In this document: positions 13,901 through 40,778 of the stretch, piece after piece
Position numbering within the stretch: position 1 is the first letter of the stretch
Layout of the letters: every line of letters begins with the position of its first letter
Virus record (IMG/VR): IMGVR_UViG_3300044846_000719
Location: 32,657 to 96,656 of that record
DNA length: 64,000 bases
Strand: one strand, 5' to 3'
Origin: a virus
The notes under the pieces: model-generated
Databases searched by the model: none
Seen by the model: only the letters and a program-made list of their open reading frames with translations
What the model was told of the DNA's origin: nothing
Program-made: the position numbers and the translations under genes

Positions 13901-16900
13901 ACAGTATTAGCTTTTGCAATATTATAAAGACGAGTTGTAGCACCACCAGAAAGAATCTCAGTTTCTTTAACTATATCACCAGTTTCAGTATCTACTTCTG
14001 TATCATACTCTAAATTAATAAATGGATTTTCTTCAGTCTCAATTAAGTTTTTAATCTTATCTATATCCTCTCTATCTATCGGTTTTACCCCAGAATAAAG
14101 ATTAAATAAAGTAAGTTGTTGAGGTGTAAGTTTTGAAGTATCAATCATATTTACAATTGAATATGATAAATACATACCACTCAATGAAATACCTAGAACT
14201 TCCATTAAATCAACTGATAATTTATTAGTAATATTTACTAACTTATCATCAGTATATTTTTTAGTTGGCTCCATTGCATTTCTTAAATTTTTTAATACAG
14301 TTGTAGCTTTTTTCTTTAACTCAGGAGTTAATTTACTTTCATAAACATTACTATATGCTTGAGACCACTGATCAAACTGTACTTTACCAGAATCTTTTCT
14401 ATTTGCAGATATAATGTTAGTAATCTGTTTCTTAGTATCTTTATTAATAAATAAATAGTCTACAGCATGTTGACCAAAACCTTTTATAAAAGATTGGAAT
14501 AAATAACTATTTTTAACATTCTCTAAATTTACATTACCGTCTTCATCAAATGTTACTCCTGTCTGAATAAAGAATTCCTCAATAACTTTACCAGACTCAA
14601 AGTTTCTATCTTTATATAAATTAAGTTTTAAAAGAATCTCTTCCGTATCCTCTGTTCCAGCAATTGCTTGTAAAATACCATTGTATACAGTAGATCCATC
14701 TACAGATTGGACATAAGGCGTACCATCTAAGAACTGTTTATTACCAAACTCATCAGCTGCCTGATATGTAATAGTAGATATCCAAGATCTCAAAAACATA
14801 GATAAACTACCAAAACCACCTACAGAAGCAGCACCTTCAGTATAATTAAAGGCAGCCTTATCTCCTAATAAAAGTTTACGTTCTTCATCTTCATTAGCCT
14901 CATTAGTTTCTTTAATACCTAAGATTGCTAAATGCTCTCTTACTGATTCTTTAAGAATGTTTCTATTTTCAATTTTGCTGAAGATTAATTTATACTCTTT
15001 TAATTTATTTAAAGTTGCAGTATCTAAATCAACATACTGATCTAAATTAGGATTATAAAGCTCCTCATAAATATCTAATACTGAATCTAGTAACTCATCT
15101 GTATTAGTTTCTTTAGTGGCGTCCTTAAGTTTGTTATTATAGATAGCAGCTACAGTTGCAGATAATCTAGTACCCTCTTGTTCTGGTAAATACTTATCTA
15201 CTTTTATATAGTTAACCTCGCCTTCAGCAGCAAATGTAGAATCTTCAATAATATCTGTACCAATCTTAATAGCTTTAAGTACCGGCTCACTTATATCAAA
15301 TGGAGAGTCTGTAAATCTATTAGTAACTACTTTACTATTTCTATACTTACCGGCATCAATATTATCAAACAAAGAATTTAATTCATTCTTACCAAATCTG
15401 CTAAATACTTTCTTGATCCACTCAACTATTCTAGCAAACAAACCTTTATTTACATAGTTAGTCTCTGTCTTTTTATTAATCTTCCATTCTTCAAACTTAT
15501 CAGCAAGGTATTCTTCATACATTCTTTCCTCTAATGCTGACTCACTCATTGCTGCATAAAGAGGATTTAATAAACGCATCTCTTCTTTAGCTAAAGAAAA
15601 AGACTTACCTTCTTTACGCAACTGATCTCTTAACTCTTTTTTAGCAATTGTTAAGTATCTAGATATCTGAGCATCACTTAGTAACAAACGGAATACTGCG
15701 TGGAAAGCTTCATGGTATTTAAAAGGAGAACTAGCAGATGTATAGATAGTACCATTAACTTCTACATTACCGGCTACATTAGACAATGAAGATACAAATG
15801 CACCTACAGTCTTACCACCATTATATAAGTTAGTCTTAAGAGTATTTAGATCTTCTACAGTAACAAAGTCAGGAAGATTGTTTTGGGCCCAAGTTAAGAA
15901 CTCAGTTAAATTAGTTATATCAGATTCAGTGTAACCAGCAGCTACTACTTTAAGACCCATGCCTTTAGACAAAACTTCTATTTGTCCTTTAATAGCTAGA
16001 ACCTCTGGAGAATTTTCCGCTTGTATTCTAATTTCTTTTTTATCAGCAGTAGTTAACTCACCTTTCTCAGCAAGTTTTTCAGCTCGTAATCTGTCATTTA
16101 CCTCGTCTGTTTTGGTATCAACTTGAGCTTGCAACTGCTTGATCTGCTGAGGAATAGATTGTTGAGCAGCTAATACTCTAGTTAAAGCATCTGCAGAACT
16201 TACTTGAATAGGTTTAGTAGATAATTGAGTAGTAGCAGCTAGTTCATTAAGTTTTTTAGTTGCGTTATTTAATCTTTCTATTCTTAAAGCAGCATCTTGA
16301 TTATTGGCTTTTGCTGTTAACTCTACATTCTTTTCATTCGGGGGAGTAAATTTACCATCTTTACCAAATGCTTTTTCTGCTATATACTTACCATTTACTT
16401 CATAGTTCTTATCTACAACAGCAGCTATCTTATCATTATCAAATACTACAGCAAAAATATTATTTCCTAAATTATAGTATTTTGCATCTTCTCCTGCAAT
16501 CTCAGATAATGGTCTACTTCCACTTATAGTTCCATATTCTGTTTTTTCTATATCAGCTCTAGCATCTGTAGGTTGAGCAGAAACAACTGAAGGATTAACT
16601 GGTGCAACACCTCTTAATAGATCTGGATTAAACGCAGAACCTGCTGGTGCATTACTTAAATCAAGATTATTTATATCAACATCAGTAGAACTACGATCTT
16701 CATTACTTACTTTTACTAATAGTGGATCTGCCTGGACATCAGAAGCTGATTCAAGCATAGTTACGTATACAGATACATTTTTAACCACATTGGGCCCAAC
16801 ACTAGCTTCCATATCTAATACTTGTAATGTATTAATAGTTTTTGGTAAAGCCGCTTTAAATGATCTACCAGTAAGCACTAGATTCATTTTAGTATTCTCT

Positions 16901-21978: not shown

Positions 21979-21999
21979 TTGTTAAATAAGTTTTTAAAG

Positions 22000-24738: not shown

Positions 24739-24742
24739 ACTT

Positions 24743-24767
24743 TACATTACAATATACTACAAATTTA
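24743..24767 (-). promoter_or_regulatory. Promoter region (TAAATTTG followed by TATATTGTAATGTA)
   Basis: Both the host-type -7 element and the recurrent late-type motif occur in the 57-bp gap. Confidence 0.45.
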
Positions 24768-24795
24768 CAGGGTTTATTAAACTTATAAAAGTTAA

Positions 24796-27700
24796 TTAGT
24801 TATCATTTAAACCAAAGAATTTAGCTAGTCTATCAGCATCAACCTCTTTTTTAGATTTGTTACGATTGTTAGCTAATTTCATAGCTACCTCATATTTATC
24901 TTTAGGAGATAATGCTTTAAAGTATGGATCTTCTTTTTCTAAGTCAGAAATAAAACTAGATAATCCAGCTTTACCAGATTGTGTAGATGAACCAGAAAAC
25001 TGTCTTCCGGCAGGATTAAAGTTTAACATACCACCAGTTCTAGGATCAATCATATAATCAGAGACAAGACTATTCATAACTTGTGTTTTAGCTCTATTAG
25101 TAAATGCAGGAACTAAACCACTCTGTACAAGATTAGTGTTGGCTTGATTTACAGAGTTATCATATTGTTGACTAGCAATAGCAAGTCCAGCTAAATAATC
25201 CTGAGTACTTTTTTGATTAGCTAATTTACCCTGATTGGTTATTTGCTTATTAGCTTGTTCAAATTGATTAGCTACACCAACGTTTAAGTTATTATATCTA
25301 GCTTCAATGTTAGCAGCATTAGCTAAACCCCTACCTTGTAGATCTGAGAATCTTGCATTAAATGCTTGTGGTCCAGTAAACTGTGCTAAATTCTGAGCAG
25401 CAATGTTAACCATCTCAGCATTATTAGCTAACTCTCTGTTAGGATCATAATAAGTAGGCTTCATAAGTTCTGGCTCATACTGACTCATTGTAGGATTGTA
25501 CTGATTAATATTTAATCTATTAGCTAATCCTAATCCAGTATTCATAACATCCTGAATATAAAAATCATTACGTTTATATTTTGGAGTAGTATCTATATCT
25601 TCTTGATAATAATTATATCCTCCTTCTTCTGGTTTTGGTTCTGGTTCTTTTCTTAATTTAGCAATCTGTCTATTAGAAGTATTACCAAAAACAGCATCTT
25701 CCTCACTAACATTTAATTTTCCTAAATATGATTTCTCATCTGTAACTCCTTCAGGTGTCCATCTAAATCGTTTTAATTTTGTAGAAATTACAGGATCATT
25801 ACTTATAGAAAGTTTACCAAGAATTTGATATCCTGATTGCCATTTGGCAATTTCTGGTTTATCTAAAGGATTAAGACCTAACTTTTTAATAGCTGCCTCA
25901 TATACAACATTTTCTTTACCAAACTTTTTAACTCTATCCCAGTCTTCACTATTTAAAATATCTTCAGGATAATTTGCTGTAAGAGCATATGCATGACGTT
26001 GGTTTTCAAGATAATTTTTAACAAATTCATCAGAGCTTCCTGTAAATTTATCTTTAGGATGCGCATTGTTATAATCAGTTAGCAATCTTTCTTTAATTAC
26101 TGGATCTTCTAATGTTGTTTTAAGTTGATCATAGTCAGCTGTATAATCACCATATTGTCCTATAAGAAGATCAGCACCAAGAACTGGGTTATAATTTTCA
26201 ATCTCAGATAGAACAGAATATTCTGTTGCACCTGGTGCAGCAACTGGTGCTCTTTGTGCAGGACGAGGTTGATTTATAACAGGAGTTTGTATTCTTTGTT
26301 GAACTGGAGGCATAAACTGATTAAATGCTCCTGACACATTACCTAAGTTAAAACCAGTTTGAGCTTTAGGCATACCACCATACATTGCAGTTTGCATACC
26401 TTCTGATGGATTAACCGGCATCATATCTTGAGGATTAACTCCAATCTTCTGTAAGTAAGGATGTGCAATACTAGGAATACCTTGTGGGAATCCTTTCATC
26501 TCTTCTTGTATAAGAGCTAATTGACCTAACTTAGTTGTATAGTTATCAAGCATTCTTTGAGCAGTTACTTTTTCAATAGTATCAGAGTTAGGATCTGCTA
26601 ATATTTTTCTATATGTAGGATCATTTAAATTAAACTTCTTAGAGACATCAGCAATTACATAACCTTTCTTACTAGGATTTAATCCAAGCATGTCTTGATA
26701 ATCACTATTTTTTATTTTCATGCTCTTTTGTTTTGTAAAAATAAAAGATCCTTCAGGAGCTTGATTACCATCTAATGGTACACCACCTTCAGCATTTGGA
26801 TCTTTACTATGATTAGGTCCATTAATTGTATATAATTGTGGAATACCATCATCACCAGGTCTTACAATTGTTTCACCACCTTCAGCCTCTAATACAGCTG
26901 TAGATCTAGGTGCAGCAGTCATACTTTGATTTACAACAGTTTCTGGTTCACCTTTAGTAGCACCACTAAATATGTTCATCATATATGCTGAGTTACCATA
27001 CAACTGATTAACAGCTTTAGCATTTTGAGTACCACCATATTGAGCTTGTGGCATACTTGTGATTCTTATTTTTCTTTTCATTTCTCCACCCATTTGGGCC
27101 TCTTTAAATTTACTACCAGATACATATTCATTAGGTCTAAAATATGGACCTATACCAGGTGTGTTAATTAAATAATCTCCTTTGTTACCAGAATAGTCCT
27201 CCGGTCTTGGATTGAATAAGTTATCTGCTAGTAATTGATCTGTAAGATTTGCTTGAGCATTTCTATCTTGAATCTTTCTAGCAACAGAACTAAATACATC
27301 TGTAGTAGCTAGTAAAGCAGGACCAATATAAGGATTACCTTTTTGTTGTTGAGGTTTTGTTTTATTACCTGGTATCTGATAATCCCAAGATTGTTGTGCT
27401 GATTTTTTAAAATCACTTGGCATTTCTAATGGTGTACCCATTGGTAATCCTGGAGTTAAATTAGCTTGTCCTTGATAAACATCAGCTGGTAAAAAATTAG
27501 CAAATGATGTACCTCTTATATTAGAAACATTCTCATTTATTTTAGTTCCTGTATTAAAAGATCCTGTAGTATTTGGATCACCCTGATATACATCAGCATA
27601 AAAAGAAGGATTTGTATTTGTTTCAAAACTTGGCATTCCTACATTGAAATTACCAGTAGTGTTTGGATTACCAGCATATACATCTGCAGCAATTGTAGGA

Positions 27701-27846
27701 GAAAAATATGGAAGGTCTTGAAGTGGATTACCAAACATACCTTGATTCTTATACCATATGGCTTTTTGCTCTGGTGTTAAAACGATAGGAGCTTCTTTAC
27801 CCGTTTGAGCTTTTGGTAAACTCTTAACCCTTACTTTTCTTTTCAT
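24796..27846 (-). CDS. Virion cargo protein with di-glycine linkers
   Basis: 1016 aa; EAEGGET and GPNH...EGGVPL motifs typical of crAss-like cargo proteins; KAQTG, AQMGG, AQYGG and AMYGG repeats; Q/N/A-rich C-terminal helices. Confidence 0.6.
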   Translation of the reverse strand: MKRKVRVKSLPKAQTGKEAPIVLTPEQKAIWYKNQGMFGNPLQDLPYFSPTIAADVYAGNPNTTGNFNVGMPSFETNTNPSFYADVYQGDPNTTGSFNTGTKINENVSNIRGTSFANFLPADVYQGQANLTPGLPMGTPLEMPSDFKKSAQQSWDYQIPGNKTKPQQQKGNPYIGPALLATTDVFSSVARKIQDRNAQANLTDQLLADNLFNPRPEDYSGNKGDYLINTPGIGPYFRPNEYVSGSKFKEAQMGGEMKRKIRITSMPQAQYGGTQNAKAVNQLYGNSAYMMNIFSGATKGEPETVVNQSMTAAPRSTAVLEAEGGETIVRPGDDGIPQLYTINGPNHSKDPNAEGGVPLDGNQAPEGSFIFTKQKSMKIKNSDYQDMLGLNPSKKGYVIADVSKKFNLNDPTYRKILADPNSDTIEKVTAQRMLDNYTTKLGQLALIQEEMKGFPQGIPSIAHPYLQKIGVNPQDMMPVNPSEGMQTAMYGGMPKAQTGFNLGNVSGAFNQFMPPVQQRIQTPVINQPRPAQRAPVAAPGATEYSVLSEIENYNPVLGADLLIGQYGDYTADYDQLKTTLEDPVIKERLLTDYNNAHPKDKFTGSSDEFVKNYLENQRHAYALTANYPEDILNSEDWDRVKKFGKENVVYEAAIKKLGLNPLDKPEIAKWQSGYQILGKLSISNDPVISTKLKRFRWTPEGVTDEKSYLGKLNVSEEDAVFGNTSNRQIAKLRKEPEPKPEEGGYNYYQEDIDTTPKYKRNDFYIQDVMNTGLGLANRLNINQYNPTMSQYEPELMKPTYYDPNRELANNAEMVNIAAQNLAQFTGPQAFNARFSDLQGRGLANAANIEARYNNLNVGVANQFEQANKQITNQGKLANQKSTQDYLAGLAIASQQYDNSVNQANTNLVQSGLVPAFTNRAKTQVMNSLVSDYMIDPRTGGMLNFNPAGRQFSGSSTQSGKAGLSSFISDLEKEDPYFKALSPKDKYEVAMKLANNRNKSKKEVDADRLAKFFGLNDN

Positions 27847-27851
27847 GTCAA

Positions 27852-30161
27852 TTAATCTAAATACTCAATACCATAACCCTGACTAATAAGATTCTGAATC
27901 TCATTGTCATCTAATTCTAACATTTGTCCTTCAGTCATACCACCCATTTGTTTTTTCCAACCAGCAGCATTTCTAGCAAAGTTAGCTCTTTTTACTTGTG
28001 TAGAACTATAGTCTTCTTTATTTGCAAGTACTTTACTAGCAAACTCTTGTACACCCATACCAGCTCTATTAGCTGAAGCAGTAAACTTTCCTTTGTTTGC
28101 AGGATTAATATTTATACCACCATAAGCCATTTGAGGAGATTGTCCTTGTTGAATAGCCTGCATAATTTGCTGAATAGCTTGTTGCTGTTCTTCTGGAGAC
28201 ATTGCCTGAAGTTGCTTAATGATTTGTTGAGGATCTGTCTGTGTCATTTGAGCATACATCTGTATAGCCTGCATAATCTGATCTTCTACCTGACCTTGAC
28301 CACCTTGCTGATACATGTTACCACCTTTCATCATGTTGTACATAGCATCCATATCCATTTGACCACCATACATATCAGTACTACCACCATAATTAAATCT
28401 TCCAACTTGTTGATCAAATGCAGTCTTCTCTAAGTTAGTACCTTGATTTAATACCATACCTGTGTTAGGATCTACGGCTTGACTAAATGTAGTACCTGAA
28501 GAAATATTTCCTTTAGGATTACTAAATATCATGCGTCCTGTTTGATCAGTGACTGATTGAGGATTAGAAGATTGATAATAAGAATAAATATCGTTACGTG
28601 ATGGCATATCTTTTACACCTGTTACACCAGAACTCTTAAGATCTTGAAGTTGTCGATTATAATACTGTTCAAATCTAGGATCACTGCCTACACCTGGAGA
28701 CATAAATGTATTAATAGGTGCACTACCAATATCACCACCTTCTGCCATGTTAGATAAAATTTTAGCCTGTACATATTCTGGTAGTGCCTGAAACCCAGGA
28801 TTATTAGTACCACCATATGCACGTTTACCCATATCCCATTTCTGCCTCGTTGTCGGATCAGGGGTGTTGTGTTGTGGGTTTTCACTGTAATACCTATTCT
28901 TTCCACGGGCTAATCTAGCGTCAGCTGCAATCATACCAATAGTCCCTGCGATACTAGCAGCAATTTCACCAATGTCTAAAGCTTTTTTATTTCTAGCTTT
29001 TTTATCTTCAGCATCAGTAATAGCCTTAAATGGAACTTCTTTTACTGGACCACCTTCTTCTGGTTGTCCACCTTGTGCCCATGTACCAAATCTTTTGTGC
29101 CAATATAGAGGAGAGAAAGGATCTGTAGCTTTAGCTGAATTCTTACCACCCATTCTATTCCAAAAATTATCTTTACGCTTATTTGAACCATGCTGGCTAA
29201 AATCTTTCATACCAACATAACCACCGTGTACAATTTTATATTTGTCACCTTTCTTAGCTAGCACCATCCACTTCTTACCGGCTCTATCTGATTTTCTTTT
29301 AGCACCTACTTTAGTAAAACCTCTACTCTTATAGCGCTGAGGAATGCCGCCCATTTTCATTTGTTCCATTTCCCCCATATTCATATCAGCATCTTCCTCT
29401 TCTTCGATACCTCCTGATTCTTCATTGTACTGCATATAATCAGAAACACTATTTAAGTAGTCATCTGCCAATGTAATCTTACTAGCTACCCAAGGCTCAA
29501 TTTCACTATCAGCATTTACAAATTTTTGTAAGTTAGATAGTCTATCATGCATTGCCATGATCTGACCAATAGCCATTTCACCACCTTCATCATAATAGTT
29601 ATCACGCATCATCATCCCGGTACCACCCATTTGCATAGCAGGCATACCCACAAGATTCATAGCTAACTTAGCCATTTGCATTTTATCACCACCACCATTA
29701 TCTGAGCCACCACCCATATTTTGAGCAGCATTATCTACATTTTTACCAATAGCCATAGCACCATTATAAAGCATATCACCAATAGCACCCATAGGATTGT
29801 TTTGTTCATCCTGTTGAGCTTTCTGCATATATGCCATCATATTCTGATCATAGTTAGGATATTGGAATATCTGCTGGTCTTGTAAACCACCACCGGTCTG
29901 TGCTTTTCTATATCCACCACCACGACTCTTATATGTCTTAACTAACCATGCTGAACCATAAGCTGAAGGCCACGTATCAAATTTAGATTTAGCCTCTGAT
30001 TTAACACGAGAATATAACCCAGGATTAGTTGGAACATTACCACCGCTTTTCATTTCTACAGCTTGTGGATAGGCTTTAAAAAATGCTTCTTCTGTAGGGA
30101 ACATATTATAGAATTCCTTCTCAGATTTAACACCAGCCATTTTTAAAAATTTATCTTTCAT
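27852..30161 (-). CDS. Modular virion cargo polyprotein-like protein (about 14 x-x-x-GG linkers)
   Basis: Start probably MKDKFLK at 30161. Linkers MKSGG, MQMGG, YDEGG, MKMGG, WAQGG, RAYGG, MAEGG, FNYGG, YQQGG, MAYGG and KQMGG separate small basic or helical modules. Confidence 0.65.
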   Translation of the reverse strand: MKDKFLKMAGVKSEKEFYNMFPTEEAFFKAYPQAVEMKSGGNVPTNPGLYSRVKSEAKSKFDTWPSAYGSAWLVKTYKSRGGGYRKAQTGGGLQDQQIFQYPNYDQNMMAYMQKAQQDEQNNPMGAIGDMLYNGAMAIGKNVDNAAQNMGGGSDNGGGDKMQMAKLAMNLVGMPAMQMGGTGMMMRDNYYDEGGEMAIGQIMAMHDRLSNLQKFVNADSEIEPWVASKITLADDYLNSVSDYMQYNEESGGIEEEEDADMNMGEMEQMKMGGIPQRYKSRGFTKVGAKRKSDRAGKKWMVLAKKGDKYKIVHGGYVGMKDFSQHGSNKRKDNFWNRMGGKNSAKATDPFSPLYWHKRFGTWAQGGQPEEGGPVKEVPFKAITDAEDKKARNKKALDIGEIAASIAGTIGMIAADARLARGKNRYYSENPQHNTPDPTTRQKWDMGKRAYGGTNNPGFQALPEYVQAKILSNMAEGGDIGSAPINTFMSPGVGSDPRFEQYYNRQLQDLKSSGVTGVKDMPSRNDIYSYYQSSNPQSVTDQTGRMIFSNPKGNISSGTTFSQAVDPNTGMVLNQGTNLEKTAFDQQVGRFNYGGSTDMYGGQMDMDAMYNMMKGGNMYQQGGQGQVEDQIMQAIQMYAQMTQTDPQQIIKQLQAMSPEEQQQAIQQIMQAIQQGQSPQMAYGGININPANKGKFTASANRAGMGVQEFASKVLANKEDYSSTQVKRANFARNAAGWKKQMGGMTEGQMLELDDNEIQNLISQGYGIEYLD

Positions 30162-30166
30162 TTTAG

Positions 30167-33100
30167 TTATTTGTATTTGTTTAGCCAACTAGTTTGACCA
30201 CCTTTTTTTTGTTCTTGTAATTGAGATGCTGCAGCTGCTCCTACTGCTAATGGAGCTACTGCCGGAAGTCTATTTAAAACATCTGTAAGTAATTTACTAT
30301 TTGCTTTAGTAGGCTCCATAAAATCAAAAATTCTAGTATTACTTGAAAAGTTACCAGTATTTTTATTATAGACACCCATAGGATTCTTTTTAAAGTATTT
30401 ATAAGCATTCTGTATTTGTTGTTGATTTATAGGAGTATAATAATCAGGAATAAATCCTTTTTGAAACATACTCTCTCTTAATTCATTTGCAAATGCTGTA
30501 GGCTCACTACCTGAACTTCCTTTCATAAAATATTTATAACCCCTTTGATCACTAGGTTTTAATTGTTTTTTAGGAACAATATTTTTTAAACCTGTATCTA
30601 AAGATAATTTTCTTCCTCTTTGTAAAACATGTCCAATTTCATGCATTTCTGTTGGTACGTCACCTACAAAATTATAACCCATACCTATTTCACCAGGAAT
30701 AGATTTACTATAATTTGGTGTAGGTTTTTTTAAATTAAGAGTTCCAGAACTTTTTACAAATTGATCATACAAAGAGGCTGGTCGATGATAAGCATTATTA
30801 TATAAATAACTATCTTCTACAAAAGGATTTGTTAAACCAGTACCTAAAAAATTAGTATTTGCGTATTCTGTAGCTTCTTTATTTACGTTCTTAACATTTT
30901 TTAATTCTTCAATTCTTGCTTTTGCATTAATTTTAGCCACTCTATCTATAACACTTAAATCAGTATCTGTATTATCAAATAGATATGCTTTTTCTTGTTC
31001 AACAAGTCTTCTAAATCCTTCTTCAGATTCTAAATCAGCAACTCTTTTACCTACTGAATTATCTAAACTTCCAACTCCTTTTTCTAATTGTCTAAAAAAA
31101 GCATGTTCTGATATAGTATTAGGTTTGAGTTTATTAACATTAGCAACCGAAGATACATCTCCATACTGTATTCCAGAAACTGTATTAACATTATCTAAAC
31201 TAACTGGTCTACCTTTTTGTAAACTTAAAGCTAATCTAGGATTTTTCTTTATTTGAGATTCTAATAAGTTACCTGCTTGTTGAGATAAACCTTTTATAAA
31301 TTTCTGCCCCGTTCTTGTTAAACCGGCACCAACGTATGATAAAGGATCAGTTACTGCATTAACACCAAATGCTAAATATGGATTCTGAATATTCATTGCT
31401 TCAGATGGCATCTGTACTTTACCAGTTGCTCCATATACAGAGGCTAATTGTGGTGCACTAAACGGAGCCATTATTGTTTCCATCATAGCAGTACCTATAC
31501 CACCAGGACCAGATGCATCATTGGGTTGCTTATACCAATCTCTACCTCCAGTAGCATTATTAACTCGTCTAGCCCACTGCTCCATAAAATCATCAGATCT
31601 TTCATTATAAGGATCTAGACCAATTGCCTTTTCTCCTTGATTAATAAATCCTCTTAACTTATCTGACCATGAACGTTTCTTACGTATATCAACAGCTTGC
31701 ATCCTATCAGGATTCTGTTCAGTAGAAGTTTCAGCACCACCTGTTGGATACTTATTAAGCCATCCACCATACTTTGCATACTTAGTAGAACTTTTATTAT
31801 CATTCTTAACAATCCCATTAAGTAAATGTATTATTCTTTCATCAGATGTTTTAAAAGTAGGTGTTTCTTTTGTATTCTTAAGATAGGGACTAAAAGGATC
31901 ACTAATGTCATAGTTATCATTAAGTGTATCAATATTATTTATTCCCTCTATTGAATTATTTCTATTATATAACTGTTCAATATTATTTTTTCCTTGATTT
32001 TCAAATACTGGAGTAAATCTATTAATAATAAAATTATCAGGATATTCTTTTTTATATTTATTCCAAATTTTAGGTGTTAATTTTTCTCCTTTAGTATAAT
32101 CATAAAAACCTTTTTTGCGCATATCTTGTTTTAAAGCATATGCATCAGACAATAATTCATCTTCCTTTCTATCGTTATTAAGAGTAGTACTATAATAATT
32201 ATTAAATCCTTCTGTATCTGTGATTCCCATCTCAGCTAATTTAGTTCTATTAAATAGAAAAACTTCAGGATTATTTTTATTTAAATAATGACTAGTTTCA
32301 TGACTCATAATAGTACTAGGATCATTTTTATATGTATACAAATCTATAGCGGTTGGATCAACACTAATCTTTTGATCTTTAATGTAACCTTTATTTTTTA
32401 ATTGTTTATTATAATCTGAAGAATAAGGAACTACAAAACTATTATTTTTAACTCTAGAGTTTGTATATGTATAACTATTTGGTATTCCTATTGCAGATTC
32501 TTCTGGATTTTTAGAATTATCAAATCCAATTTTTAATTCAGGAAAATTAAAAGGAAATGCTGGTGGAATATAACGTTCATTAAAAGTATTTGTAACAGGA
32601 TCATATTTTGATCTAACTCCTGTAATTCTTGGATTATCATATTCCTGATCAGTTACAAAAGAATTATAATTCTCAGGATCTGGTTGTGGACCATATTCTT
32701 TTTTAGCATTTTTTAAATCATTTCTTAAATATGCTTCTGGAACTGTATCACCTATTCTTTTTCTATTAGCCTCATACCAATCTTTTAAACCAGAAATTTC
32801 TTCATTAAATTGATTAGTATATTCCTGTACTGATTTTCCTGGAGGAGCTTCACCAGCCTCTTGATATTTACTTAACCAACCACCATACTTTTTATTTTCT
32901 GGATAGTTATAACTATAACCTTTACCTTCAGTTACTTTAGCATTAGTTATATCTAAGTTATTTGCAGTCTTCCAGTCTTGGTATTCTTTTTCAGTTCTAA
33001 AAGCTTTCTTAGACCCATCTTGTAATGTAACACCAATATTATACTCTCTAGCCATTCCACCATTAGGAGTATACATATCTCTATCTATATTAGATACAAC

Positions 33101-36100
33101 TAAAGAAGGTTGATAGATAATAGGTTGAACTGGTTCTGGAAATAAAATTTCAGTAGATAAACCTTTGTTATAATCACTCTTATTAGGAAAATTATCATAA
33201 CCTGTAGGTTGTATACCTTTTATATATTCTAATTTTTGTTTTTTATTTTGTTTAACACCATCTCTAACTAATCCATAACAATTAATATCTTTACAAAAGG
33301 ATTTTTTTAATTCAGCATTACTTCTATAGAAAACATCTTTATTTGGAATAAAGAAGTTACTATTATGTAAAGATGCACTATCATTAAATCTTTGTAATCT
33401 AGGATCATTAGGATCTGAAGTATACATAGGAGCTCTACCACCACCAACTTGAAATTCATCTAACCATCCTCCATCTTTTAATTGATTAATGTCTACTCCT
33501 TGAAATGGTATATCACCAACAGATCCATACTTCTGCAAAGCCTTAGCTTTGTTTTCATTTGACATATAGTTAAACTGTTGAATAATAGGTTTATTATAAC
33601 CAATCTTTTTTACAGGTAATTCTATTGGAGTAACTGGTAGAGGAGTTTGTACTACATCAGGAATAATTTCTGGTTTATTATAAATAGGTTGTGATACCTT
33701 AGTTAATATTGATTTTTTAGATGGTGTTAGTTTTGTGTTTACTCCATAATATATAGGTTGAACAGGTTTTTTATAGAGAATTGGTGCCCTATCTTTTAAA
33801 TATTTACCTAATCCACTTGCATCACTAATCTCTGCGTCACCACGAAGATTATTTAAGGATGTATTACCCTTTGGCAAACCTAATTGTCTTTCATATAGCG
33901 TTATATTACCATAACTACCACGGTAACCTAATGCCATCTGGGAAATTGGAGCTATTTTACCAGAAATAAAATTATATGGTGGAGGAGATGTTTCTAGACG
34001 ACCAATAGATAATCCAGCATTTTTAACTACATTAATATATTTTTGTTTATCTTGTTCTCCTTTATTATATAAATTTAAACTATCTCTATAACTACCTATT
34101 CTAGGATCTCTTGAGTTTGATGTATAGATTGGACGTCTTACACCACCATCTTGATATTGATCTAACCACCCGCCATATTTTTTACCAGGAATATATTCTG
34201 TTATAGGTGAATTATTGTAATGAATAAGATATTCTCCATTATTAAAAGCACTAAGATCAAGACCCATCCTTTTTGCCATTTGCTTTTTTAAAATTTGATC
34301 ATCTACTGTACCCCACTCATTTTTTTTATTTTTGGGATTATTGTTTGCATCTTTTAAAAATGAGTCTACTGGAAAATAATCAACTAAACTAAATTTAGAA
34401 GGGTCTTGTGCTATATAAGTTTCATGCTCGTCATAATCATAGTCAGGTCTATTTGTAGGTAATCCTGCTTGTGCTAATCTAGCAGCATATATTGATTCTG
34501 GAATTTTAGGAGCAAAATCATCATTATCTTCACTATCCCAATATCTTTCTTTATATCCTAAATCTACATTATGTAGATTAGCCCAAGACATAATTTCTGG
34601 ATTGTTACGCATTTCAACTTGCATCTGTTCTGCACGATTCCATATTTGATCAGGAAGTTCTCTTGTTAATCCGTCTACAGTATCAGGTGAATACTTATTT
34701 TTTGCTAAATAATCATAAAAAGTTTTATTATTTAAAGAAAGATCATTTTCAATCTTATCTTTAGTAGGATAATTTACTAAATTATTATGATCAGTTTTTA
34801 ATACATACGCATATTTACCAGGTCCATAAACATTAATTGCAGAACTATTTTTATAATCTTTATCACCATCTCTAAGATTTGTTAACCATCTTCTATTTGG
34901 AGAATAACCATCGTCTTTAACTAAAGGAAAATTACCAAATGATTTACCAACTACTTCTGGTAAAACATATTCTTGTTCTAAAGACGCTTGATAGTTTGAA
35001 GGTTTAGCTTCATTATATTTAAAAGTAAGTTTAGGATTGTTTATTAATTTATTATCTATAGGATAATATGGAGCTGCAACTTGTCTAAATTCTTCTACTG
35101 TAGGATTTAAATTTTTTATAGGTAATTTTGGATTTACCCAAAAATTATCTCTAGTACTATTATCTAATAAATATGGATGTATATTTATATCAGGTTTATA
35201 TAATAAATTACCTTCATTGTCATATTCATATGTAGGATTATCACTTACCTTTTTTCTTTTAACATTAATATTAACACCCTGCATTCTTTCAGGATTTTGT
35301 TCTGTTGAAGTTTCACCACCAACTGGATACTGATCTAACCAAGTCTCACCACCATCTTCTCTACGCTTATGATTATAATCTATACGCTTACCTGAAGTCT
35401 TCTCTCTTTTAAATCTAGCTTTCTCTGCAGAAGACATCTCTGATGTAGTTTTAGGAGTTGTTTCATTTACTCTTCTAGATGGTCTGCATGCAGGATATGG
35501 TCTACCATCTTTATCTTTTCCTGATCTACCACATGTTTTACCTGTCTTAACATCCACCCATTTTTCATCAAACCACTGACTCAAACCGCCTTTACCAAAT
35601 TCTTCTAATACTCCAGTACCCTTTTTATAACTTTTAGCAAATCTTCTAGCTTGTCTATCATTAGGAAACTCAATATACTGACCACTCTGATTTGCATAAT
35701 CATATGCATTATCTCCTAAGTATTGTAAAGTACCATCAGGCATTTGTACAACTGTAGGATATACACGACCATCACCACTTGCCATAAAGTGTGTGGCAGG
35801 ATACTGCTGACCGGGTATCATTATACTTGGTGTATTAGGTTGATACATTCTTTGAACAAAGTTTAGATCTTTATTCTCATTAAGAATTTTATCTATCTTT
35901 CTCTTAGACATACCACCAAACTGCATCTGAGGATACTCAGTTACATAGTTACCGGGGAATGTATATTCTCCACCCGGCATCATCATTTGCTGATTACCTA
36001 AGTCATCTATACCAAGTACTGGATAGTTAACTCCCTTCATTGTAATGTTAGAAGAAGGTATGACAGTAACCTCACCGGGATATGCCCACTGCCCTAAAGG

Positions 36101-36127
36101 AGATATTATAGGTTTTTTTCTAGCCAT
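30167..36127 (-). CDS. Modular virion cargo polyprotein-like protein with GGWLxxY linkers and two zincin motifs
   Basis: 1986 aa; six GG(x)WL[DNS][QKE][YF] repeats; HETSH (~32290) and HEIGH (~30630). Confidence 0.65.
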   Translation of the reverse strand: MARKKPIISPLGQWAYPGEVTVIPSSNITMKGVNYPVLGIDDLGNQQMMMPGGEYTFPGNYVTEYPQMQFGGMSKRKIDKILNENKDLNFVQRMYQPNTPSIMIPGQQYPATHFMASGDGRVYPTVVQMPDGTLQYLGDNAYDYANQSGQYIEFPNDRQARRFAKSYKKGTGVLEEFGKGGLSQWFDEKWVDVKTGKTCGRSGKDKDGRPYPACRPSRRVNETTPKTTSEMSSAEKARFKREKTSGKRIDYNHKRREDGGETWLDQYPVGGETSTEQNPERMQGVNINVKRKKVSDNPTYEYDNEGNLLYKPDINIHPYLLDNSTRDNFWVNPKLPIKNLNPTVEEFRQVAAPYYPIDNKLINNPKLTFKYNEAKPSNYQASLEQEYVLPEVVGKSFGNFPLVKDDGYSPNRRWLTNLRDGDKDYKNSSAINVYGPGKYAYVLKTDHNNLVNYPTKDKIENDLSLNNKTFYDYLAKNKYSPDTVDGLTRELPDQIWNRAEQMQVEMRNNPEIMSWANLHNVDLGYKERYWDSEDNDDFAPKIPESIYAARLAQAGLPTNRPDYDYDEHETYIAQDPSKFSLVDYFPVDSFLKDANNNPKNKKNEWGTVDDQILKKQMAKRMGLDLSAFNNGEYLIHYNNSPITEYIPGKKYGGWLDQYQDGGVRRPIYTSNSRDPRIGSYRDSLNLYNKGEQDKQKYINVVKNAGLSIGRLETSPPPYNFISGKIAPISQMALGYRGSYGNITLYERQLGLPKGNTSLNNLRGDAEISDASGLGKYLKDRAPILYKKPVQPIYYGVNTKLTPSKKSILTKVSQPIYNKPEIIPDVVQTPLPVTPIELPVKKIGYNKPIIQQFNYMSNENKAKALQKYGSVGDIPFQGVDINQLKDGGWLDEFQVGGGRAPMYTSDPNDPRLQRFNDSASLHNSNFFIPNKDVFYRSNAELKKSFCKDINCYGLVRDGVKQNKKQKLEYIKGIQPTGYDNFPNKSDYNKGLSTEILFPEPVQPIIYQPSLVVSNIDRDMYTPNGGMAREYNIGVTLQDGSKKAFRTEKEYQDWKTANNLDITNAKVTEGKGYSYNYPENKKYGGWLSKYQEAGEAPPGKSVQEYTNQFNEEISGLKDWYEANRKRIGDTVPEAYLRNDLKNAKKEYGPQPDPENYNSFVTDQEYDNPRITGVRSKYDPVTNTFNERYIPPAFPFNFPELKIGFDNSKNPEESAIGIPNSYTYTNSRVKNNSFVVPYSSDYNKQLKNKGYIKDQKISVDPTAIDLYTYKNDPSTIMSHETSHYLNKNNPEVFLFNRTKLAEMGITDTEGFNNYYSTTLNNDRKEDELLSDAYALKQDMRKKGFYDYTKGEKLTPKIWNKYKKEYPDNFIINRFTPVFENQGKNNIEQLYNRNNSIEGINNIDTLNDNYDISDPFSPYLKNTKETPTFKTSDERIIHLLNGIVKNDNKSSTKYAKYGGWLNKYPTGGAETSTEQNPDRMQAVDIRKKRSWSDKLRGFINQGEKAIGLDPYNERSDDFMEQWARRVNNATGGRDWYKQPNDASGPGGIGTAMMETIMAPFSAPQLASVYGATGKVQMPSEAMNIQNPYLAFGVNAVTDPLSYVGAGLTRTGQKFIKGLSQQAGNLLESQIKKNPRLALSLQKGRPVSLDNVNTVSGIQYGDVSSVANVNKLKPNTISEHAFFRQLEKGVGSLDNSVGKRVADLESEEGFRRLVEQEKAYLFDNTDTDLSVIDRVAKINAKARIEELKNVKNVNKEATEYANTNFLGTGLTNPFVEDSYLYNNAYHRPASLYDQFVKSSGTLNLKKPTPNYSKSIPGEIGMGYNFVGDVPTEMHEIGHVLQRGRKLSLDTGLKNIVPKKQLKPSDQRGYKYFMKGSSGSEPTAFANELRESMFQKGFIPDYYTPINQQQIQNAYKYFKKNPMGVYNKNTGNFSSNTRIFDFMEPTKANSKLLTDVLNRLPAVAPLAVGAAAASQLQEQKKGGQTSWLNKYK

Positions 36128-36131
36128 TTTA

Positions 36132-39100
36132 TTACCTAAATGAAGCTAACAATTTATTATTACTGAGCTTCAAAAAGAACTTAGATGAGCCAGAAACAAG
36201 TTTCTTTAATAGAACCTTATTAATATAGTGTCTAAATTTCTTTCTTTGTGTAGCTCCCTTATTATAATTTACGTAAGTTGCGTTAATATTCCTAATGTAA
36301 CCGTTAGCTTCAGTGACCCACATAGGTGTAGTATTAGCTGAAGTTTGACCTCTATCATTTGTAATATCCCAGAATTCATTAAACCTATATTTCTGTTCTA
36401 CTTTAGAGAAGAGTATATCAATAGAGCTAGTATTAATGATAGGATAGTTATTAATAGCGTAAGGATTATTAAGTGGTGAAAGATTTAAAATTAAGTCACC
36501 GGATATTTGTTCTGTATTATATATAACAGCCCTATCAAAATTCTCATTAAGTAAATGATTATAGTCTAAACAGTTCTTAGAATATTTATAACACTCTAAG
36601 ATGTATTCTATTGATCTTGTAGTTGTAACGGTTTGACCTTGGTTCTGTACATATTCTACTTCAAATGGATAATTAACTCCGTAGTAATTACAGAATGAAT
36701 CACATACTAGGTTATGTTTCCAGATACCATCATCTTTAACTGTCATATAGTAAGTCTTACTAGACATTACTAAGTTAGGTTGCCAGTCATGGAATGAAAT
36801 AAATGCTTTAGCTTTAGGGTCATAACTTACTGTCCAGGAAGCATTCTCAAAATATATAGGATCACCTAATGTAATTTGATATCCCGGAAAATCTAAAAAT
36901 TCAAACTTATTACCAAGTCCAACTAAATACTTTACTCTTCCTATATACTCAGATTTAAGTTTAAAGTCACGTTTACAAAAGAATACTATCTCGTTAATAT
37001 TATCATATGTTGTTTGACAACCAATACCTATAATAGTATTATCAAGCATTGTAGTATCTATATTTGGGAAGTCTACAAGTAATGCATAAGGACTATATTG
37101 AGAGAACCACCACTTCATACCGGATTTAGAAATATCCTGTAGACCTTGACCGTAAGAGAATATCTTACCTTGGTTTTGACTCATATAGAATAATCCTGCT
37201 GGTGTATTAATTACAGATAATTTACTCTGACAACTACCATATTCAAATTCACTATCTGCATTAGATAGATTCTGTAATGGTTGTGCATTAAATAACTGAC
37301 CATCACCAATAGATAATTTAGTACCACCGTTAAGATCTAAAGTTTCTACACCCTGGAATAACATTGGGGCACCATGTTCTAGCATAATTACGGCTCCTGT
37401 TTTACCAACAGAACGCATACTTGTAACTCTAGAATCAAAGTCATAATAGTTATTAGCTAGGAACTGTCTCCAGTTATCTTTACGTAACTCATACTGTTGT
37501 TGTAAAGAATAGATAACTCTTGTAGGATATGTTGTAAAGCAACCTACGTTATCTGGATTATAAATCCTTGGTTGTATATTACCCCAAGATACAAAATTTG
37601 TAAAGTGCTTACTAATGCTTAATGCGTAGTCATACTTCTGATAGTTTGTATCTTTGATATAAGGAGTACGGAACATTTCCTCATAGTCAGTATATGTATT
37701 AAAGTCATAATGTCTTTTACCAGGATCATCTCCATAATCTCTATATGCTAAGTTAAGTTCTGATTCTACATAGAAATCTCTAATACCAGAATTAAACAAA
37801 TACATATATGCAAATCTTACTGAAAATGCACCAGATATTATTCTTCTATCTAAGTGATGAAAGTCATTAGGTAATGCTTGAGTTCCACCAAATATGCCTT
37901 CAAATAAATCAGCAGCATTATACTTACTAGTATCCATCCAATATCTTGGATAAGGAAGCATGTTATATAATCTATAATCCCACTCAGTATTATCAGGAAG
38001 ATCCTGCATCCACTGAGAAAAATAAAAGAATGTAGACTTCTCAGTATAACGGTTAACATACATGTCACCACCAAAGATTATATTGGATGTGGCTTTCTGT
38101 GTATATTGTAATGTCCAAAGATCAATACATCCTACAGGTATTTGTCGGATTGCATCTAACTGACCGTACTGATTATCATTCTTAATTTTTAATGCAGCAT
38201 AGTGAGCAGAAGTAACTGAGTTTTGTAACTTAGTTGGTTCCTTCCAAATATCATTATCTGCAGTTCTACCATGATCTCCTCTTGCAATATCACCAATAGT
38301 AAATAATGTATTATCAATTACTGAAGGATCAGCAATACCACTATTAGTTGTAAGTGTTACAGTACTAGCCCGAAATAAGTTATTAATTCTGTAAGTAGTA
38401 TCATAATCTTGAATAACTGGATCTACATATAATGACTTAATAATCTCTCTTCTTCTATTACCAATTGGAGAGGATATAAAATTATTATAAAAACCACGTG
38501 ATATATATTGATAAGCAAACTGTCTTTTACCACTAGCTGCTTCTATACCTTCAATTACATTTTGTGTTGATTCAATATAATAGTAAGAAAATAAAATTAC
38601 ATAACCAACAGCAGCACCAACAATAGCAGTAGCAGCTCCAGCTATAGGACCTGCTGAAGTACCAGTTATTCCACCAAAAGCGGCAAAGTTTCCAGTAATT
38701 ACTGCAACTTTTGCTGCCGCTTCAACAAGATTACCACCAAATACTGCAGAAATTGTAGCAGCAGATCCTATAGCAATACCAGCAAAGTTAGCAATAACAG
38801 CAGCAAAATCCGTAATAAACTTATCTTTAGGATGATTGTCTACAGGCCTAAAGTTACCTTCCACATTACCCCATAACTCACCATACACTTTTAATTCAGT
38901 AGCTGATAAGAAAGGATTTCGGAATGTGGTTTCAGGTGAGTGAAAAGAGAACATGTCTTTTCTATAAGAACTAAATAATCTTACATCATTAGGAACAGCA
39001 TCTCTATAAGCGCCACCACGTGTTTGTTTTCCTGTAACTACATCTACACCTAAAAAAGGATCCGGAGATAAAGGATTGTACGGATAATTTACGTACAAAC

Positions 39101-40778
39101 CAGTCTTACTAGAAATAGTATCAGGAATATCATATTCCCTCATATTATTAATAAGACCTTTTGCAATGATAGATCTATTACCCTCTCTTGTACCCCTTAA
39201 GATTTCATACCCAATAATATTACGGATATAGTTAGTCGCTAAATCTTTTGGGAATTCAATATTAGAGAACTCTACACCAAGTAAAGTAAGAGTATTGTTT
39301 GCTGTATTATAATTAGAGATGATAATATCATCCGGCATTTTGTGGTGCCTAATATTCTTAGCACATAAATTAGCCCATATATCTGGTTTATTATCAGGAT
39401 ACTTTTCTGTAGACTCCCAATATGCCATCTCACCTCTTGCTATAATTACACCACCGTCATCTAATGTTCCGGTTGCTGGTACTCTTGTAGCAGTATTGTT
39501 TACTTGCCAGTTTTGTTCTGAACCAAAGTTTACGATGTGATCAGGACCAGCGTTATTATTAAGCTCTCCGGGTTTTGGTGAACGTCCTGGTATATGGTAG
39601 CTAGATGACTTGTCACCTGTGTTATATATCCATCGTATAAAAAAGCTATATACTTCATCTCTTAAAAATGTTGGTTTGTTTCCGCCATCATAATAATATG
39701 TGGCCGGGTATTCTACACCAACCCATCTAGTAACAATATTATTAGCTAATGGTTGGTAATTAAAATCTTCATATGTGGTTGGACCAATCCTAATCAAATA
39801 ATCATTAACATTATACATTGCCACAGATTTCTCATATGACGGTGTACGTAATGGTATTTGCTCTAATGGTACGGTAACCAATGTAGGATCTACTGCATCT
39901 AATGAAATAGTAGTTGACTGCGTAGAGTAGTAACCAATCTTTCTAGCAACGGCTTGTTGATTAACAAAACCAATTAATACTAATTCAAATTCATCATAGT
40001 CTGCATCAAGGCCGGTAAATGTAATATCTAAAGAACCATTAGCATTATCATGTGTCCACAATGCTTGTACATTAGAGATTGATAAATAGTCTGTTACTCT
40101 TATTCCGTTAACAGAGTAAGCCATTGTAGCCTGATAAGAACCATTTAACAATGTACCTAGACCATAACCCTTAGTAACTTGAATACAAGGTGTATTAGCA
40201 TATGCAGCTAGTCTTAGTTTGTCGCAATCAATTACACCGGTAGATACTTCATCTTTACATGGGCCTGGAAGAATATCTGTTGTAATGTAAGGAACACCAT
40301 CCCAGTTACCTACAGGATAAGGCCATAAATCTTCATTACCAATATTCATTGTTCTGGTAGGATTAAATCCATCATCCCAATATAAGTTCCATTTACAATC
40401 TGAACTATATTTAGATACACCAGTTATAGGGTAATCTTTTGAAAAGTTAAAACATTTGTTTTGTGGATCATTATAGATAGTATAATAATCACAAGTATTC
40501 TCATCAAATAAACCAATCTCTGAACTAAAAATATTAGTGGAGTAAATAGCCCATTTACCATTACCAATACTAACTGTACCAATAATAGTATATGGTGCTC
40601 TAGCACATAATACGTTACTAGGCTCATTACCTAATACACCAACATCTCCAGATGGAGAATTGTTAACGGCATTCCTTGCATGTGTCCAGTAACCCTCACC
40701 TATAAAAGTATCACTTACGTCTTTAAGTAGACCTTTATTATAGAGTTCGGTGTGTATTAAACTAGTTTTACCATCCAT
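36132..40778 (-). CDS. Tail stabilisation / muzzle protein (crAss-like, P22 gp10-related)
   Basis: 1548 aa; KGLLKD..WTHARNAV..GVLGNEPSN N-terminus, beta-propeller-like C-terminus with WTVSYDP..FISFHDWQP; located after the ring proteins. Confidence 0.8.
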   Translation of the reverse strand: MDGKTSLIHTELYNKGLLKDVSDTFIGEGYWTHARNAVNNSPSGDVGVLGNEPSNVLCARAPYTIIGTVSIGNGKWAIYSTNIFSSEIGLFDENTCDYYTIYNDPQNKCFNFSKDYPITGVSKYSSDCKWNLYWDDGFNPTRTMNIGNEDLWPYPVGNWDGVPYITTDILPGPCKDEVSTGVIDCDKLRLAAYANTPCIQVTKGYGLGTLLNGSYQATMAYSVNGIRVTDYLSISNVQALWTHDNANGSLDITFTGLDADYDEFELVLIGFVNQQAVARKIGYYSTQSTTISLDAVDPTLVTVPLEQIPLRTPSYEKSVAMYNVNDYLIRIGPTTYEDFNYQPLANNIVTRWVGVEYPATYYYDGGNKPTFLRDEVYSFFIRWIYNTGDKSSSYHIPGRSPKPGELNNNAGPDHIVNFGSEQNWQVNNTATRVPATGTLDDGGVIIARGEMAYWESTEKYPDNKPDIWANLCAKNIRHHKMPDDIIISNYNTANNTLTLLGVEFSNIEFPKDLATNYIRNIIGYEILRGTREGNRSIIAKGLINNMREYDIPDTISSKTGLYVNYPYNPLSPDPFLGVDVVTGKQTRGGAYRDAVPNDVRLFSSYRKDMFSFHSPETTFRNPFLSATELKVYGELWGNVEGNFRPVDNHPKDKFITDFAAVIANFAGIAIGSAATISAVFGGNLVEAAAKVAVITGNFAAFGGITGTSAGPIAGAATAIVGAAVGYVILFSYYYIESTQNVIEGIEAASGKRQFAYQYISRGFYNNFISSPIGNRRREIIKSLYVDPVIQDYDTTYRINNLFRASTVTLTTNSGIADPSVIDNTLFTIGDIARGDHGRTADNDIWKEPTKLQNSVTSAHYAALKIKNDNQYGQLDAIRQIPVGCIDLWTLQYTQKATSNIIFGGDMYVNRYTEKSTFFYFSQWMQDLPDNTEWDYRLYNMLPYPRYWMDTSKYNAADLFEGIFGGTQALPNDFHHLDRRIISGAFSVRFAYMYLFNSGIRDFYVESELNLAYRDYGDDPGKRHYDFNTYTDYEEMFRTPYIKDTNYQKYDYALSISKHFTNFVSWGNIQPRIYNPDNVGCFTTYPTRVIYSLQQQYELRKDNWRQFLANNYYDFDSRVTSMRSVGKTGAVIMLEHGAPMLFQGVETLDLNGGTKLSIGDGQLFNAQPLQNLSNADSEFEYGSCQSKLSVINTPAGLFYMSQNQGKIFSYGQGLQDISKSGMKWWFSQYSPYALLVDFPNIDTTMLDNTIIGIGCQTTYDNINEIVFFCKRDFKLKSEYIGRVKYLVGLGNKFEFLDFPGYQITLGDPIYFENASWTVSYDPKAKAFISFHDWQPNLVMSSKTYYMTVKDDGIWKHNLVCDSFCNYYGVNYPFEVEYVQNQGQTVTTTRSIEYILECYKYSKNCLDYNHLLNENFDRAVIYNTEQISGDLILNLSPLNNPYAINNYPIINTSSIDILFSKVEQKYRFNEFWDITNDRGQTSANTTPMWVTEANGYIRNINATYVNYNKGATQRKKFRHYINKVLLKKLVSGSSKFFLKLSNNKLLASFR

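Follow-up and report, generated by a model that had tools for sequence, protein, structure and literature searches.

The ejection proteins of phages T7 (gp14-16), P22 (gp7/16/20) and N4 and the internal proteins of T4 are stored in the head, leave it ahead of or together with the DNA and must unfold to get through the tail, and the capsid-targeting sequences of T4 are cut after Glu by gp21. To our knowledge, none of these proteins has been described as a chain of swappable mini-modules held together by a fixed junction peptide. Two other described systems bear on the gene considered here, which occupies positions 27852-30161 on the minus strand of a 64,000-nucleotide stretch of the IMG/VR virus record IMGVR_UViG_3300044846_000719 (hereafter the window; coordinates are positions in it, and the record as a whole comprises 96.7 kb with an estimated completeness of 81%). 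The first is cargo protein 1 of the Bacteroides phage ΦcrAss001, gp45 (PDB 7QOG, 7QOI, 7QOJ, 7QOL and 8CKB; PF25725, crAss_CARG1; PMC10172136), in which residues 425-552 are reported to form one compact, portal-bound folded domain (PMC10172136). The second comprises the polyvalent proteins of Iyer, Burroughs, Anand, de Souza and Aravind (2017, PMC5512222), which presumably are packaged and delivered together with the DNA and for which processing by embedded zincins has been predicted.

The gene encodes a 769-residue protein of a marine crAss-like phage, and the protein is most likely packaged in the particle and injected. Its modules are separated by a non-random, conserved hydrophobic-x-x-Gly-Gly junction and evolve as independent cassettes. 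The reading we favour, on which our confidence is evenly balanced, is that of an injected cargo protein of a phage with Flavobacteriia-type hosts, in which most junctions remain uncut and act as hinges or docking elements.

A conserved hydrophobic-x-x-Gly-Gly junction

A preliminary description of this stretch had listed about 14 di-glycine motifs, all 14 of which were found among a total of 21 runs of two or more glycines; the additional ones are SRGGG, NMGGG, DNGGG, EESGG, IVHGG, NRMGG and PEEGG, of which three (SRGGG, IVHGG and NRMGG) are internal to conserved modules and mark no border. The x-x-x-Gly-Gly pattern exceeds what composition predicts. The protein contains 25 GG dipeptides compared with 10.3 ± 2.7 expected from 1000 residue shuffles (z 5.4; 0/1000 reach the observed count), and the motif [MYWF]-x-x-G-G occurs 10 times compared with 1.68 ± 1.28 expected, a count reached in none of 2000 shuffles. 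At 10 of the 21 sites the position three residues before GG is occupied by M, Y, W or F, against a background of 16% (binomial p 8e-4). An excess of GG was missing in 11 of the 14 other window proteins tested, and the sole protein with comparable enrichment of the longer motif is the 1986-residue product of the gene directly upstream (7 versus 1.44 expected). A weak enrichment was seen for ORF 46534-48072 on the minus strand (4 versus 1.05 expected, p 0.02), and none in any other window protein tested, other Gly-rich ones included, nor in the 4687-residue RNA polymerase fusion (1 versus 1.7 expected). The 512-residue product of ORF 46534-48072, with 17% Gly, also carries an excess of GG (24 versus 14.7), and it gave no Pfam or PHROG family match.

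The same pattern characterizes the family. Across 240 family members, 678 semi-independent contexts have M (33%), Y (22%), W (7%) or F (6%) three residues before GG, followed by a position mostly occupied by A, Q, K or E. Numbered in the manner of protease substrates, the two glycines (P1 and P2) and the hydrophobic residue (P5) are essentially invariant (about 100%) at approximately 15 sites in 120 aligned homologues, and P3, immediately before GG, varies freely (e.g. Q 0.04, S 0.12, E 0.34). A literature search found no description of a hydrophobic-x-x-Gly-Gly junction motif. Gly codon bias at the junctions was also considered as a possible recombination signal and rejected: because GGT, the usual Gly codon phage-wide, dominates everywhere, the junctions carry no signal at the DNA level.

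Modules as swappable cassettes

The frame 27852-30188 (minus strand) is open for 778 residues from a TTG codon, which at 30188 overlaps the upstream gene. The ATG at 30161 (MKDKF...), 5 nt past the stop codon of the upstream 1986-residue ORF, is the start in most homologues and coincides with the end coordinate given in the preliminary description; 27852-30161 was therefore chosen as the probable coding sequence. Its features are as follows.

27852..30161, minus strand: whole coding sequence, 769 residues plus stop codon (27852-27854), placed by homologue starts
30039..30161, minus strand: conserved N-terminal head, residues 1-41, three predicted short helices ending in E-M-K-S-G-G (homologues; pLDDT, the model confidence, 76-81)
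29886..30038, minus strand: basic module (+7), residues 42-92, N-terminal half of DUF5872, cleanly missing as a cassette from some homologues (Pfam, homologues)
29622..29885, minus strand: Q/N/M-rich stretch, residues 93-180, predicted to be disordered, ending in A-M-Q-M-G-G (pLDDT 21-30)
29346..29621, minus strand: acidic two-helix module, residues 181-272, net charge -16, EPWVASK... with a poly-Glu tract, ending in Q-M-K-M-G-G (homologues, AlphaFold2, charge)
29067..29345, minus strand: DUF5754 module, residues 273-365, net charge +18, beginning right after GG and ending in ...FGTW plus A-Q-G-G (Pfam, stand-alone ORFs)
28809..29066, minus strand: module of residues 366-451, a Gly/Ala-rich hydrophobic helix between basic residues (possible membrane-active segment), ending in R-A-Y-G-G (Kyte-Doolittle maximum 1.45 at residue 394)
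28734..28808, minus strand: GFQALPE helix cassette, residues 452-476, ending in M-A-E-G-G and resembling SFQALPE...AEGG of gp45 (z 3.1, marginal)
28383..28733, minus strand: S/T/N/Q-rich variable region, residues 477-593, the chief site of cassette gain and loss (homologues)
28299..28382, minus strand: cluster of four motifs (FNYGG, DMYGG, MMKGG, YQQGG), residues 594-621, Met/Tyr-rich (motif list, alignment)
28116..28298, minus strand: Gln-rich three-helix module, residues 622-682, ending in Q-M-A-Y-G-G (pLDDT 71-78)
27939..28115, minus strand: basic NKGKFT...FARNA module (+7; phrog_20603), residues 683-741, ending in K-Q-M-G-G and shared with gp45 residues 373-428 (PHROG, alignments)
27855..27938, minus strand: acidic C-terminal tail, residues 742-769 (...EIQNLISQGYGIEYLD), candidate docking handle (homologues)

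These borders agree to within about 30 nt with the module positions proposed before, and the modules expected to be basic comprise three strongly basic ones (+7, +18 and +7). Net charges alternate along the chain (+7, -4, -16, +18, +3, ... +7, -7). Profile searches matched DUF5872 at residues 53-95 (Pfam, E 2.9e-8), DUF5754 at residues 298-346 (E 9e-6; 26.1 bits compared with a Pfam cut-off of 27.4) and phrog_20603 at residues 699-739 (E 1e-4), and PF19058, the DUF5754 family, is precomputed by the database for the protein and most of its homologues.

A database search for the family yielded 1402 relatives of comparable length plus 277 that were shorter, among which whole modules are present or missing with clean edges. 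Module order is permuted in four homologues (P0131, P0161, P0170 and P0199), and new cassettes appear, e.g. a GLWDNIRA...GSGKKPT module. Both ends lie no more than 3 residues from the end of a GG in 263 of 786 distinct indel segments of at least 15 residues, compared with 26 ± 5 by chance. The modules are therefore independent cassettes whose order and content are shuffled among relatives, and the proposal of a chain of compact modules set off by di-glycine motifs is borne out by indel edges, permuted order and a motif that is not random. A C-terminal tail like that of residues 742-769 recurs family-wide, regardless of module order. The JGI name 'Zn-dependent oligopeptidase' on short family fragments looks spurious; the fragments consist of the Gln-rich and NKGKFT modules and contain no peptidase motif.

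That several modules exist as stand-alone proteins, as the preliminary description stated, was borne out for DUF5754 in phages and for both DUF5754 and DUF5872 in a giant virus. Stand-alone DUF5754 phage ORFs of 91-157 residues stop at ...FGTW, the embedded copies continue into W-x-x-G-G in nearly every large protein checked, and the embedded module is 65-82% identical to the stand-alone members. Chrysochromulina parva virus BQ1, a giant virus, has DUF5754 and DUF5872 annotated as small proteins in their own right, whereas here both families are embedded in one chain. Module starts directly follow the glycines, as seen from GG-IPxRYK in the embedded form compared with M-A-IPDRYK in the stand-alone ORF, and from embedded GG-ININPANKGKF compared with the N-terminus MTIEIKKENRGKF in phage cr127_1. 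An alignment of 30 phage sequences of the DUF5754 module has 29 invariant columns over 89 residues, an unusual degree of conservation for a domain of unknown function. DUF5872 is split over two neighbouring genes, residues 53-95 of the 769-residue protein and residues 145-247 of the 1986-residue protein. In Synechococcus phage S-BM3 it is whole: a 337-residue protein (1521-2534) in a T4-like structural region carries both DUF5872 halves together with DUF6321, and such mini-modules therefore travel in cyanomyoviruses too.

Relationship to gp45 and other described systems

The protein shares with gp45 its slot after the muzzle gene and ahead of the virion RNA polymerase genes, the NKGKFT...FA(R/Q)NA module, a similar FQALPE...AEGG cassette and a similar Gly/Ala-rich hydrophobic helix. 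Related Gly-Gly junction motifs occur in both, and both are largely unstructured save for small islands. The NKGKFT region (residues 680-762) aligned, in this one module only, with gp45 residues 373-474 (hhalign E 3e-5, probability 73%), and this module matched the cr108_1 homologue of gp45 with a BLASTP E of 3e-20. Local alignment of the hydrophobic helix and the FQALPE cassette gave z values of 1.0 and 3.1, which are suggestive only. The related motifs in gp45 are FSAYGG (209), FAEGGG (263), KAFGG (332), NAFGGW (427) and MFAYGG (562), and its resolved segments lie inside Gly-Gly-bounded stretches (214-245 within 211-262; 425-552 within about 425-561). Three GG motifs, one of them I-N-E-G-G, fall within residues 425-552 themselves.

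The similarity is nevertheless limited to about 80 residues, and the N-terminal half of the protein has DUF5872-half, acidic and DUF5754 cassettes that gp45 does not possess. The CARG1 portal-binding domain (gp45 residues 424-555) was found neither in the protein (Pfam, E ≤ 0.1) nor in the 96.7-kb record (E ≤ 10), compared with E values of 2e-66 and 3e-58 for the same model on gp45 and its cr108_1 homologue, and the protein is therefore not filed in the PF25725 family.

With the polyvalent proteins it has in common that it is a multi-module phage polypeptide of variable architecture with zincin domains in the same gene block (PMC5512222). It differs in that its modules are mini-domains of 25-90 residues without a peptidase of their own; neither an HExxH motif nor an enzymatic Pfam domain was found in it. 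As the text of PMC5512222 contains neither 'glycine' nor 'linker', a conserved junction motif is not described there. The adenovirus and African swine fever virus polyproteins, processed by the clan CE proteases adenain and pS273R, are alike in layout only, namely in a recurring x-x-G-G ahead of module starts. They differ in virus realm, in the placement of the hydrophobic residue (P5 here, not P4) and in the clan CE protease, none of which was detected in the record.

Genomic context

Every gene of the window lies on the minus strand, and ring proteins 1 and 2 and the muzzle protein were recognised as crAss-like marks. Two neighbouring genes frame the comparison.

36132..40778, minus strand: crassvirus muzzle protein gene, anchor of the cargo-block synteny (PF25731, E 4e-29)
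30167..36127, minus strand: upstream neighbour, 1986 residues, motif-enriched, with the C-terminal half of DUF5872 and two HExxH motifs at residues 1276 and 1829 (Pfam, motif scan)

After the muzzle gene follow proteins of 1986, 769, 1016, 912, 4687 and then 1763 residues. The 769-residue protein is thus encoded by the second gene after the muzzle gene and ahead of the virion RNA polymerase fusion, a slot matching that of cargo proteins C1 and C2 (gp45 and gp46) in ΦcrAss001. Dozens of IMG/VR contigs keep the order of muzzle-sized, variable, motif-rich, ~1100-residue and ~880-residue proteins. The virion-internal location proposed earlier is consistent with this setting, since the gene lies within the virion cargo block.

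The C-terminal part of the 4687-residue protein matches crassvirus RNA polymerase subunits; a tblastn search with it returned the polymerase core only, at about 25% identity, and with the N-terminal 2500 residues no match. Pfam found no family in this protein, and a megablast search of GenBank phages with 20 kb of the window gave no match. The 1986-residue neighbour ends in ...KKGGQTSWLNKYK, and a GG(Q/E)TxWLxxY tail closes the equivalent protein in many related loci; hence a C-terminal tag of its own seems to mark each class of cargo protein. The tail ring genes are separated from the muzzle gene by an endonuclease VII gene (40778-41272, minus strand).

Predicted structure

AlphaFold2, run on the 769-residue protein with an alignment of 63 sequences, gave a mean pLDDT of 42.6, with 531 of the 769 residues below 50. 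Confident islands comprise residues 1-85, 624-672 and 750-769, with a weaker one at 270-350 (pLDDT about 45-55), and several modelled helices stop just before GG or begin just after it. In the model the protein resembles a string that is unfolded over most of its length and carries mini-domains. The whole-protein confidence was too low for a fold search, and phmmer of the 769-residue protein against PDB sequences returned nothing at E ≤ 1. Folded alone, the DUF5754 module reached a pLDDT of 74.9 and matched none of the solved folds searched (Foldseek against the PDB, best E 1.9; VIA-align wide, best Z 2.5), which is no proof of a new fold. Its BFVD matches were uncharacterised viral proteins only, including those of marseillevirus, pithovirus, iridovirus and Vibrio phage ICP1.

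Evidence on proteolytic processing

The strongest rival to the uncut chain, though one we consider rather unlikely, is polyprotein maturation, in which each junction would be cut after the second Gly, in the head or after injection, by a virion zincin or a host enzyme. The zincin would be supplied by the HExxH domains of the 1986- and 4687-residue neighbours, and basic, acidic and membrane-active mini-proteins would be set free. Invariance of both glycines and P5 with a free P3, module starts exactly after GG and the occurrence of DUF5754 as a free small protein elsewhere all point in this direction. So does the only recurrent protease candidate.

15700..15714, minus strand: HEAFH zincin motif, residues 2089-2093 of the 4687-residue virion RNA polymerase fusion (motif scan)

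In its extended form, YHEAFHxVF, this motif is conserved in gp47 of the human-gut crassvirus ΦcrAss001 (residue 2157; 21120-28145) as well as in the packaged RNA polymerase fusion of this marine phage. Cleavage of the fused crAss RNA polymerase polyproteins has been proposed and a zincin-like protease domain noted (10.1101/2020.03.07.982082), and zincin processing of packaged phage polyproteins is thus a published prediction (see also PMC5512222). That the junctions are the sites of the zincin packaged with the crAss RNA polymerase, which would amount to polyprotein maturation of a tailed phage with a new site specificity, nevertheless seems doubtful. The 4687-residue fusion, itself expected in the literature to be cleaved, shows no excess of the motif. 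The HExxH motifs of the 1986-residue protein gave only a weak Peptidase_M91 match, and an HExxH-bearing neighbour within 8 kb is present at only about a third of related loci.

The preliminary description had suggested a phage analogue of the adenovirus and African swine fever virus core polyproteins. The modular build of the cargo protein and the reality of its junction motif withstood the analysis; clan-CE-like maturation did not. In the 96.7-kb record, whose 81% completeness means that absence is not absolute, the clan CE families PF00770, PF02902 and PF03290 had no match at E ≤ 10, and adenain, Ulp1, I7L, C39 (PF03412), JAB and S77/S78 prohead proteases were not found, nor was a homologue of T4 gp21. 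Pfam scans of 71 ORFs likewise showed no clan CE protease among the matches listed, which for one of the scans comprise 25 of 32 matched families; the record thus offers no protease of known GG specificity. The only other peptidase-like genes among the listed matches came from a Pfam scan of the 44 ORFs of genome positions 1-33500, which returned DUF2201_N (a putative metallopeptidase) with VWA-like DUF2201, and PhageMetallopep; placing the DUF2201 pair at genome 15558-16694 (plus strand) is a guess, as the scan gave no ORF assignment. The site itself is not of the adenain type (M/I/L)xGG↓X either, since the hydrophobic residue stands at P5, three before GG, and P4 is A, Q, K or E. Substrates of coronavirus PLpro, ubiquitin and C39 double-glycine leaders also carry their hydrophobic residue at P4, and we know of no GG-protease consensus with a hydrophobic P5.

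The ends of ORFs speak against cleavage: among 115 motif-rich ORFs in related loci, only one carries GG within its four C-terminal residues and in none are the glycines terminal, so that no ORF fission ending at GG was seen. In gp45, the three GG motifs within residues 425-552, reported as one fold, are probably uncut. Apart from the remark on the RNA polymerase, we found no literature linking crAss cargo proteins to proteolysis or polyproteins, and the 2023 structure paper assumes an intact gp45 chain, its mass spectrometry carrying no size information (PMC10172136).

Published MALDI peak lists of ΦcrAss001 (PMC6235969, supplementary file 14) were matched to theoretical tryptic masses for gel bands 1-10, from above 300 kDa to 58 kDa; bands 11-13 (54, 35 and 15 kDa) were left out. 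This re-analysis assigned gp50/gp47, gp49/gp44, the portal, gp26/gp22, gp22/gp25, gp25 and gp23 to bands of the expected size. For intact gp45 (90.8 kDa), no signal above decoy level was obtained in these bands of at least 58 kDa, although the portal, with 12 copies per virion, was found. As the three smallest bands were not covered, the missing gp45 signal is a weak hint only.

Interpretation of the junction

We favour an uncut chain over processing, counting here both hinge-like junctions and junctions that serve purely for docking. Support comes from the lack of any match to a GG-type or prohead protease, from ORFs that do not end at GG and from the reported gp45 fold that spans three GG motifs. 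In the proposed mechanism, about ten small modules would be arranged like beads on a string, each closed by a hydrophobic-x-x-Gly-Gly junction: the basic DUF5872-half, DUF5754 and NKGKFT modules, acidic and Gln-rich helical ones and one hydrophobic helix. The junction would mostly stay uncut, its hydrophobic residue being the last core residue of the preceding module and its two glycines ending the helix and supplying a hinge. Such a hinged, largely unfolded chain could pack against DNA and thread module by module through portal and tail, with the conserved acidic C-terminal tail as the likely docking handle. As the joint is identical everywhere, cassettes can be swapped in frame. Both roles of the junction, hinge and docking, are what we infer from these observations.

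Several observations weigh against this reading. In plain flexible linkers, invariance of two glycines and a hydrophobic residue at fixed spacing across unrelated modules would be unusual; such constraint fits a recognised site, whether for a protease or for binding. The exact asymmetry at GG-IPxRYK and GG-ININPANKGKF is what a GG↓X cut would be expected to leave, zincin protease motifs are present in neighbouring cargo proteins, and the absence of gp45 from the large gel bands points the same way. Furthermore, packaging of the 769-residue protein itself is something we infer for an uncultured phage.

A further alternative, which we rate as improbable, though far from negligible, treats the junction as a multivalent loading or docking tag: the peptide would bind a repeated site in procapsid, portal or tail rings, by which cassettes would be recruited and held until ejection. 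Among the window proteins tested, enrichment of the motif is confined to two adjacent proteins of the cargo block and, more weakly, to ORF 46534-48072, and each cargo class has its own conserved C-terminal tail. Moreover, short gp45 segments bind the portal wing and tail rings in 12 copies and a short helical segment sits at the muzzle in 6, while a GG-W-L motif opens the portal-bound domain of gp45. The partner of the junction peptide is, however, purely hypothetical, and the resolved tail-barrel segment of gp45 (residues 214-245) lacks the motif. At least 10 tags per chain also exceed any obvious stoichiometric need, and AlphaFold shows no ordered structure at most junctions.

Chance, i.e. 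GG runs that merely reflect a Gly-rich, low-complexity protein (11.6% Gly, much Met, Gln and Tyr, with GGT as the usual Gly codon), is refuted for practical purposes, as shuffles never reach the counts, other Gly-rich window proteins lack the motif, conservation in 120 homologues is position-specific and indels are bounded by GG.

Implications for crassvirus cargo

Crassviruses, which rank among the most abundant gut and ocean phages, take up about 5 MDa of protein into the particle and drive this load through the tail. A fixed junction peptide that recurs in cargo proteins of thousands of relatives, the structurally solved gp45 among them, provides a concrete handle on this cargo. Cut junctions would call for a revision of the published model in which gp45 spans portal and tail as one chain. 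Should the zincin do the cutting, the two gp45 segments seen 420 Å apart in ΦcrAss001 would be separate fragments rather than one threaded chain, and DNA-binding, acidic and membrane-active mini-proteins would be released, either within the head or once a new cell is infected. The cassette pattern explains how small injected modules such as DUF5754, which is also present in giant viruses, are swapped.

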